Source: a virus
Lineage: Duplodnaviria; Heunggongvirae; Uroviricota; Caudoviricetes
IMG/VR virus record: IMGVR_UViG_2667527657_000003
Length of the DNA: 9,108 nucleotides
Strand: one strand, 5' to 3'
Position numbers and translations under genes: made by a program. Under the pieces are notes generated by a model. The model did no database searches, had not been told where the DNA came from, and saw nothing but the letters and a program-made list of their open reading frames with translations. Shown here piece after piece: positions 1-521 of this stretch. Within the stretch, counting starts at the first letter, position 1; each line of letters begins with the position of its first letter.

Positions 1-72
1 GGTAGTTCAGTCGGTTAGAATACCTGCCTGTCACGCAGGGGGTCGCGGGTTCGAGTCCCGTCCGTTCCGCCA
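1..72 (+). tRNA. tRNA-Asp (anticodon GUC), 3' 72 nt; the first ~5 nt lie before the window
   Basis: Sequence matches enterobacterial tRNA-Asp from position 6 to the 3' CCA as I recall it. Anticodon stem cctgc (23-27) pairs with gcagg (35-39), giving a 7-nt loop ctgtcac with GTC at 30-32. T-arm ggttcgagtcc and terminal CCA at 70-72 are present. Confidence 0.9.
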
Positions 73-521
73 ATATTCAGAAAGCCCGAATCAGTAATGA
101 TTCGGGCTTTCGTCGTTTTGGTGAAGTGAGAATTTTTCACTCCGAAGTAAAACGGATATGATTTAAAAGCCATCTCATTATCACGTTGATAGTTAAAACC
201 GAGTGGGATCATGGTGTCGATGAGTCCGGAAAGCACCGGAATATCCTTCATGGCCGGAAATATGGTGTTCTCCATCCACGTATCCAGCTCAGAATCCGGC
301 GCCTGTGCACGGACGAAAACGGCAATATGCAGAACAGCCTGCCAGTCGTCCTCATCCGTCATTTTTCCGGTGTACTGCGCATCACTCAGCCACACCGCCA
401 CGGCGGGCAGTTCCTGCGCATCAATAAATGCCGGAAGCCCGTCAAAAAACGTGGCGCTGTCTCCACACTGTTCCCGAAGGCGTGCCAGCACGCTCTGACG
501 GATTTGTGTGTGTCGGTTCAT
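15..521 (-). CDS. U: Tail terminator protein (lambda gpU homolog); C-terminal part of the ORF is probably not native
   Basis: Residues 1 to about 115 of the 168-aa ORF align by eye with lambda gpU (MNRHTQIRQSVLARL..ATFFDG..PAVAV..DSELDTWME..). Lambda gpU is about 131 aa, but this ORF has no stop until 15-17 and reads through the terminator hairpin and into the tRNA. Start ATG (519-521) overlaps the Z stop TGA as ATGA. Confidence 0.6.
   Translation of the reverse strand: MNRHTQIRQSVLARLREQCGDSATFFDGLPAFIDAQELPAVAVWLSDAQYTGKMTDEDDWQAVLHIAVFVRAQAPDSELDTWMENTIFPAMKDIPVLSGLIDTMIPLGFNYQRDNEMAFKSYPFYFGVKNSHFTKTTKARIITDSGFLNIGGTDGTRTRDPLRDRQVF
81..115. terminator. Intrinsic terminator of the tRNA; perfect palindrome, potentially bidirectional
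   Basis: aaagcccgaatc (81-92) and gattcgggcttt (99-110) are exact reverse complements: a 12-bp stem with 6-nt loop agtaat, followed by T-rich cgtcgtttt on the + strand. The A3/T3 arms also give a U-tract when read on the - strand. Confidence 0.7.

Follow-up and report, generated by a model that had tools for sequence, protein, structure and literature searches.

Results

Gene content of the window

The stretch of DNA analysed here (the window, 9,108 nucleotides) is a complete draft contig, LAHV01000040.1 (9108 bp) of assembly GCA_001017345.1, which is the only contig in the public collection with an exact match to the 168-aa protein encoded at its left end. Repeats form both ends of the contig: on the left it begins inside a tRNA-Asp gene, 5 nt of which are missing, and on the right it ends inside an IS3-family (IS600-like) transposase gene. 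The stop inside the tRNA is accounted for by the tRNA-Asp repeat, and since the window is the whole contig, nothing further to the left can be read. Related genomes (L016-L024) have another tRNA-Asp gene ~8.2 kb upstream of aspV, identical in sequence but with its own 3′ flank; it corresponds to aspU, which in K-12 sits at an rRNA operon end. Inward of the tRNA and its chromosomal flank, a lambdoid late-gene block starts at base 169 and runs on the minus strand to the IS600-like element (Table 1). The earlier note on this DNA had reported that tail genes are absent, and this holds for the window, but the contig stops inside the tRNA.

Table 1. Coordinates of the features in the window, numbered from its first base.
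Feature	Position	Strand	Evidence and remarks
aspV, tRNA-Asp(GTC)	1..72	+	Rfam tRNA; first 5 nt beyond the contig end; identical to E. coli aspV beside dnaQ
Native chromosomal flank 3′ of aspV, apparently of S. flexneri type (single G at 144)	73..168	+	99% identity to the E. coli flank
Intrinsic terminator hairpin of aspV	80..111	+	Perfect 14-bp stem, 4-nt loop, T-rich tail GTCGTTTTGG; within the conserved native flank
Chimeric 168-aa ORF	15..521	-	U residues 1-118, then 50 codons on the antisense strand of the aspV flank, terminator and tRNA
Novel joint ...GATTTAAAA|GCCATCTCATT...	168..169	.	Three-way alignment of the window, native aspV and the intact prophage
Truncated tail-terminator gene U	169..521	-	Codons 1-117 plus 2 nt of codon 118; last 15 codons lost; PF06141
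Gene Z (tail completion)	518..1105	-	PF06763, 244 bits
Gene FII (head-tail attachment)	1089..1466	-	PF05354
Gene FI (packaging)	1478..1897	-	PF14000
Gene E, major capsid	1916..2944	-	PF03864
Gene D, head decoration	3002..3349	-	PF02924
Gene C (S49 head protease/scaffold)	3386..4891	-	PF01343
Portal gene B, pseudogene	4881..6474	-	+1 T in the T-run at ~5481-5486; ORFs of 351 aa and 207 aa
Gene W	6471..6674	-	PF02831
Gene A, terminase large subunit	6675..8642	-	PF05876, PF20454
Nu1 C-terminal half (terminase small subunit)	8557..8865	-	PF07471, profile positions 85-163 of 164
IS600-like IS3-family element end, terminal TGAGGTGTACTGGCAATAGCGGACAC	8865..9108	-	Contig ends inside

Two further sequence features were observed within the late genes. 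The 3′ part of gene C (scaffold region) holds three direct copies of a 94-nt unit at 3543-3927, which are 66-73% identical and spaced 141-150 nt apart, a pattern that suggests an internally repeated protein segment. In addition, positions 6716-6756, which closely precede W and fall within the 3′ end of gene A (large terminase), hold a near-perfect hairpin of 18 bp with a loop of 5 nt.

The first 168 bases are aspV and its native flank

Bases 1-72 match the Rfam tRNA model at 54.6 bits as a 5′-truncated hit. ARAGORN made no tRNA call on the window alone, owing to the 5 nt of the tRNA 5′ end that lie beyond the contig end, and it called tRNA-Asp(gtc) once these had been restored. The tRNA is on the strand opposite the phage genes, as had been noted before, but its 3′ end lies 96 bp from the break instead of the ~60 bp given earlier. 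The palindrome noted at 81-110 as a terminator is indeed a perfect hairpin with a 14-bp stem, and its limits are refined to 80-111.

In more than 1600 complete E. coli genomes, the stretch behind aspV is 98-99% identical to bases 60-168, and the match always ends at 168. The gene order in these genomes is rnhA-dnaQ-aspV, followed by type VI secretion genes, and the native flank past the breakpoint reads ...AAAA|AATGGCCAGAC (continuation also given as AATGGCCAGACATT / AATGGCCAGACATTATAAATTC). At position 144, the window flank reads CTCCGAAG versus CTCCGGAAG, with GG, in all E. coli genomes compared. The single-G frame is common only to P0002, a spurious 60-aa ORF antisense to native aspV in an S. 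flexneri draft; this ORF suggests that the allele of S. flexneri is the single-G one. Among 90% cluster representatives of DnaQ, P0202 has E. coli-type contexts in which the aspV flank is different.

Gene U is cut in codon 118

The U part of the 168-aa ORF is a clear member of Pfam Phage_tail_U (PF06141), scoring 176 bits against a cutoff of 25, with ORF residues 2-119 aligned to profile positions 1-118 of 130. A full-length gpU domain covers ~130 positions (133 aa in close relatives), which the window U does not reach, and the parental C-terminus TWAMAEITYQITYTN has been replaced. The sequence that follows U in the window is aspV DNA, not the tail tube gene V, whereas genes V-J follow U in the sister loci L005 and L006 and in the complete chromosomes L010-L015.

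The earlier observation that the reading frame continues unbroken through the terminator into the tRNA was correct, as the minus-strand ORF spans 15..521 and encodes 168 aa. This uninterrupted run of 168 codons is what would recommend the proposal, also made in the earlier note, that the gene is a true variant of U whose C-terminus is longer and divergent. Among 5.8 billion proteins searched, 78 homologues of U were identified; full-length members are typically 133 aa, and the additional C-terminal residues occur in none of the 78. Query coverage is at most ~72% for all homologues except one, P0014 (82%), and the extension of P0014, like those of other longer U variants, is unrelated to the C-terminus in the window. 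The last 49 residues of the ORF instead match, residue for residue, spurious antisense-aspV ORFs of other drafts, including P0002. The extra residues are antisense aspV DNA, and a genuine long variant of U is accordingly extremely improbable.

The lambda gpU structures 1Z1Z, 3FZ2 and 3FZB align to residues 3-131 of the parental 133-aa U, which indicates that the product encoded in the window lacks the last 15 residues of the fold. In all likelihood the joint has no function, and the ORF stays open for 50 more codons by accident. Other truncated or fused U ORFs were seen in Shigella genomes (P0064, P0079 and P0060), including a 152-aa FI-U fusion on 13 contigs named S. dysenteriae, and their number implies that broken U genes are common in the genus.

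The joint at 168|169

It had been proposed that the breakpoint be located by aligning the window with relatives of the prophage and with the native sequence after aspV. In the resulting three-way alignment the switch is clean and falls at 168|169, where the intact prophage reads ...CCCAGGTG|GCCATCTC... The loss of similarity in U described previously is therefore real, but it occurs at residue 118 (nt 168|169) and not at about residue 115 (nt 175-180). On the aspV side, the breakpoint lies just past the tRNA's own terminator and ~35 bp ahead of the next native gene; on the phage side, it lies in codon 118 of the 133-codon U gene. A locus spanning the joint was found in 0 of 5426 complete E. 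coli genomes, in which the phage matches begin at 168/169, and exact searches with a junction 35-mer and a junction 29-mer returned no match in GTDB representative genomes, JGI metagenomes or IMG/VR.

The alignment of the window, native aspV and the intact prophage reveals neither an IS end nor microhomology at the joint, and a microhomology test was not significant. An IS-mediated adjacent deletion is ruled out, as the joint is without an IS end. A TGGCCA...CATTAT patch near both breakpoints, 4 nt off the joint, was also considered and discarded, because it does no better than 12% of random breakpoint pairs. A 19-nt inverted match connects the joint (167-185) with a site inside the IS600-like transposase gene (9011-9029), of which 11 nt are exact (AAGCCATCTCA / TGAGATGGCTT). 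Although it sits exactly on the breakpoint, this match is probably a coincidence, given that 9 kb of sequence should contain about ten 11-mer matches of this kind by chance alone.

The parent prophage in sister strains

The exact Z protein of the window was found on a few further contigs. One of these, L005, lies on a 1.6-Mb contig of GCA_002217695.1 and is 99.98% identical to window positions 169-9108, and two others (L006 and L007) are 100% identical to positions 169-9074. L006-L008 come from S. flexneri 1a/2a isolates from Vietnam, with L006 and L007 being 1a (PMC10323796). In the sister loci, a 133-aa U is followed by V, G, T, H, M, L, K, I and J. The contigs of the sister drafts break near U and V, which is explained by the tail and ipaH genes forming a two-copy repeat. 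In L005, the IS element lies directly after the Rz lysis gene.

Following the J protein (P0110) led to complete S. flexneri chromosomes (L010-L015), which hold two prophages with a common tail and ipaH module. Copy 1 carries the heads D-E-FI-FII-Z as in the window and continues as J-lom-tail fibre-ipaH-ybhB-bioA-bioB; the run from ipaH into ybhB-bioA-bioB places this copy at attLambda. It is the defective ipaH-carrying lambdoid prophage that we take to be the one called the 'ipaH island'. Copy 2 adjoins aspS. In three genomes, window positions 169-1200 are 100% identical to copy 1. Copy 2 has 30 differing sites within 169-673 in two of these three genomes, with the last at 208, and in the third it is identical to the window from 636 onward. 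The U fragment at the joint is thus assigned to the attLambda copy, and a joint on the aspS-side copy 2 was judged unlikely, given that the fragment carries the alleles of the attLambda copy. Together with the aspV flank, these matches make a Shigella flexneri-type genome the likely source of the window.

The two copies have a ~15 kb tail-plus-ipaH module in common, within which exact identity starts at the window-equivalent position 636 or 207 depending on the strain, and the relative orientation of the two copies varies between complete S. flexneri genomes. These comparisons suggest that gene conversion and inversion may occur between the two prophage copies.

The head block was inactive before U was cut

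The portal gene of the window carries a single-base frameshift relative to that of E. coli FDAARGOS_943, which is intact at 1593 nt. The frameshifted sequence is identical in the window, L005 and L006, which indicates that the split is an inherited mutation and not a sequencing error. Homology to intact Nu1 ends at 8865, where the N-terminal half of the gene and cos have been replaced by the IS, and the 107-aa Nu1 remnant with the IS600-like element upstream is also found in the sister loci. Since both lesions are common to the sister strains, the prophage was dead before U was cut.

These lesions bear directly on a further proposal of the earlier note, in which the window would be a head-only, capsid-encoding satellite-like element that integrates at aspV. 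Such an element would present head genes, but no tail genes, beside the 3′ side of a tRNA. The block is, however, 100% identical to a full prophage that does have tail genes, and it is seen as a separate unit through a joint on one contig only, so that it is not a recurrent self-contained unit. Nor are its head and packaging genes intact, with the portal gene frameshifted, Nu1 partial and cos destroyed by the IS. Integration into the tRNA would have placed the junction in the 3′ part of the tRNA, which ends at 72; the joint at 168 is outside any such att core, within codon 118 of U, and has left the native flank and terminator in place. There is no integrase beside the tRNA, its neighbour being the truncated U, and the only rve-domain match in the window is the IS transposase at the opposite end. 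A search of the 9108-bp contig that tolerated up to 3 mismatches likewise gave no repeat of the tRNA 3′ end; the far side of the block is hidden, as the contig ends in the IS. We therefore regard a satellite integrated at aspV as having almost no chance of being correct.

Origin of the joint

The reading that we favour, with a probability of roughly 0.8, is that the window holds a strain-specific recombination joint, in which an already dead attLambda prophage was cut in U and joined to the aspV flank. By then, cos together with the 5′ half of Nu1 had given way to the IS600-like element, and the portal gene had its +1 frameshift. In the proposed event, homology-independent (illegitimate) recombination would have joined the aspV flank, 96 bp past the tRNA, to codon 118 of U. 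The illegitimate character of this step is read from the joint itself, which has no IS end, no tRNA att core and no microhomology, and from the lack of a tRNA 3′-end repeat in the contig.

We infer that the joint exists in the cell and did not arise in a read. The competing view is an assembly or library artefact, in which one or a few chimeric reads put 168 nt of the aspV locus on the end of a contig whose true continuation is the rest of U and the tail genes. It draws on the presence of the joint in one assembly only, on the position of the aspV part at a contig end and its length of 168 nt, which is shorter than many reads, and on the complete lack of microhomology, as in a ligation chimera; the contigs of the sister drafts also break in the same neighbourhood, where the tail module is a two-copy repeat. 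Against this, a chimeric branch would face native paths of full depth on either side, and an assembler would normally clip it. The contig also shows no fork at 168|169, and its end lies 72 nt into a 77-nt tRNA repeat, like that of a graph edge. A graph misjoin also requires a k-mer common across the joint, and there is none. An artefact therefore has a small share of the probability, and we consider it quite unlikely.

If the joint was formed by recombination in the cell, its strand orientation bears on the type of event. The late genes are on the same strand as bioB-bioF-bioC in L012, and aspV is on the dnaQ strand in L002 and L016. On the K-12 map, where aspV is located at ~0.24 Mb and attLambda at ~0.81 Mb, bioB and dnaQ both read clockwise. 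In the window, aspV (+) faces U (-) head-to-head. In a collinear backbone, this arrangement would be the left joint of an inversion and not of a deletion. The joint may thus represent one end of an inversion or of a complex rearrangement, which would be more likely than a simple tail deletion, but as the argument from strand orientation assumes a K-12-like backbone, we put an inversion or complex event forward tentatively, at somewhat less than even odds. The specific form envisaged, held with the same reserve, is a large inversion (~0.5 Mb in K-12-like order) between the aspV flank and U of the attLambda copy without IS or homology. Such an inversion possibly left a reciprocal joint, predicted to read ...ATGGCCAGAATTTATAATGTCTGGCCATT|CACCTGGGCGATGGCGGAAATCACG... 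(GTGGCCAGAATTTATAATGTCTGGCCATT|CACCTGGGCGATGGCG) and to be followed by V-J and ipaH, and the tail genes may accordingly lie elsewhere in the same genome.

The earlier note had described a recombination joint that cut the 3′ end of U and placed the head block beside the tRNA, which our alignments bear out, and had attributed it to deletion of the tail region, a part of the proposal that fits the strand orientation less well than an inversion does. As a sub-case of a real joint, a simple deletion would have taken out all DNA between aspV+97 and U codon 118, V-J included, and would require matching orientation of the two sites in the backbone of this strain. Shigella backbones are heavily rearranged, and the orientation of the prophage copies varies between complete genomes, so that the starting arrangement may have been an unusual one. 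In complete S. flexneri genomes, however, the parent prophage is at attLambda beside bioA, its late genes are on the bioB strand, which is the dnaQ-aspV strand in the K-12 map ~0.5 Mb away, and the window shows the opposite relation. Loss of the intervening interval would also take essential genes. On balance, a simple deletion seems unlikely.

Discussion

Our analysis indicates that the window is a case of ordinary genome decay or rearrangement of a known defective ipaH prophage of S. flexneri, and not a new kind of element. It has little consequence beyond annotation, in which the head block should be counted neither as a satellite nor as an aspV island, and the 168-aa "U" ORF should be annotated as a pseudogene or fusion and not as a protein variant. 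More generally, contigs that end in repeats, which here are the tRNA-Asp copies, IS600 and the two-copy tail/ipaH module, can make a prophage fragment resemble a self-contained element. If the joint is real, it is a strain-specific structural change in an S. flexneri genome, probably an inversion, and a possible lineage marker. Rearrangements in Shigella are almost all IS-mediated, and an inversion free of both IS and homology, if true, would be unusual for the genus.

Several known systems resemble the window in part. Foreign DNA lies at the 3′ side of aspV in the window as it does in aspV islands, such as the type VI secretion island of many E. coli. These islands, however, join in or at the tRNA 3′ end and have an integrase and a direct repeat, whereas the joint in the window is 96 bp further on and neither is seen in the contig. 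Satellites of the cf-PICI type similarly present a head and packaging module without tail genes. They have intact head genes and their own integrase and regulation, and they recur across strains, whereas the block in the window is a broken piece of a full prophage, found in one assembly.

For the U gene, residues 1-118 in the window are clearly homologous to lambda gpU (PF06141), which the parental protein matches over residues 3-131. The window U differs in that its last 15 residues have given way to 50 non-phage residues and that no tail genes adjoin it, and its product would not be expected to work. Rac and Qin are truncated cryptic prophages of E. coli K-12, and the window is similar to them in being a prophage remnant shaped by IS insertion, point mutation and the loss or rearrangement of one arm. 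It differs from Rac and Qin in that the event is very recent and confined to a single strain, with the kept part showing no divergence from the parent. That parent is the S. flexneri attLambda ipaH prophage, which is 99.98-100% identical to window positions 169-9108 and carries both the portal frameshift and the IS600-like insertion in Nu1. In sister genomes this prophage continues through V-J, lom, the tail fibre and ipaH to ybhB-bioA, whereas in the window it stops in codon 118 of U, joined to aspV.
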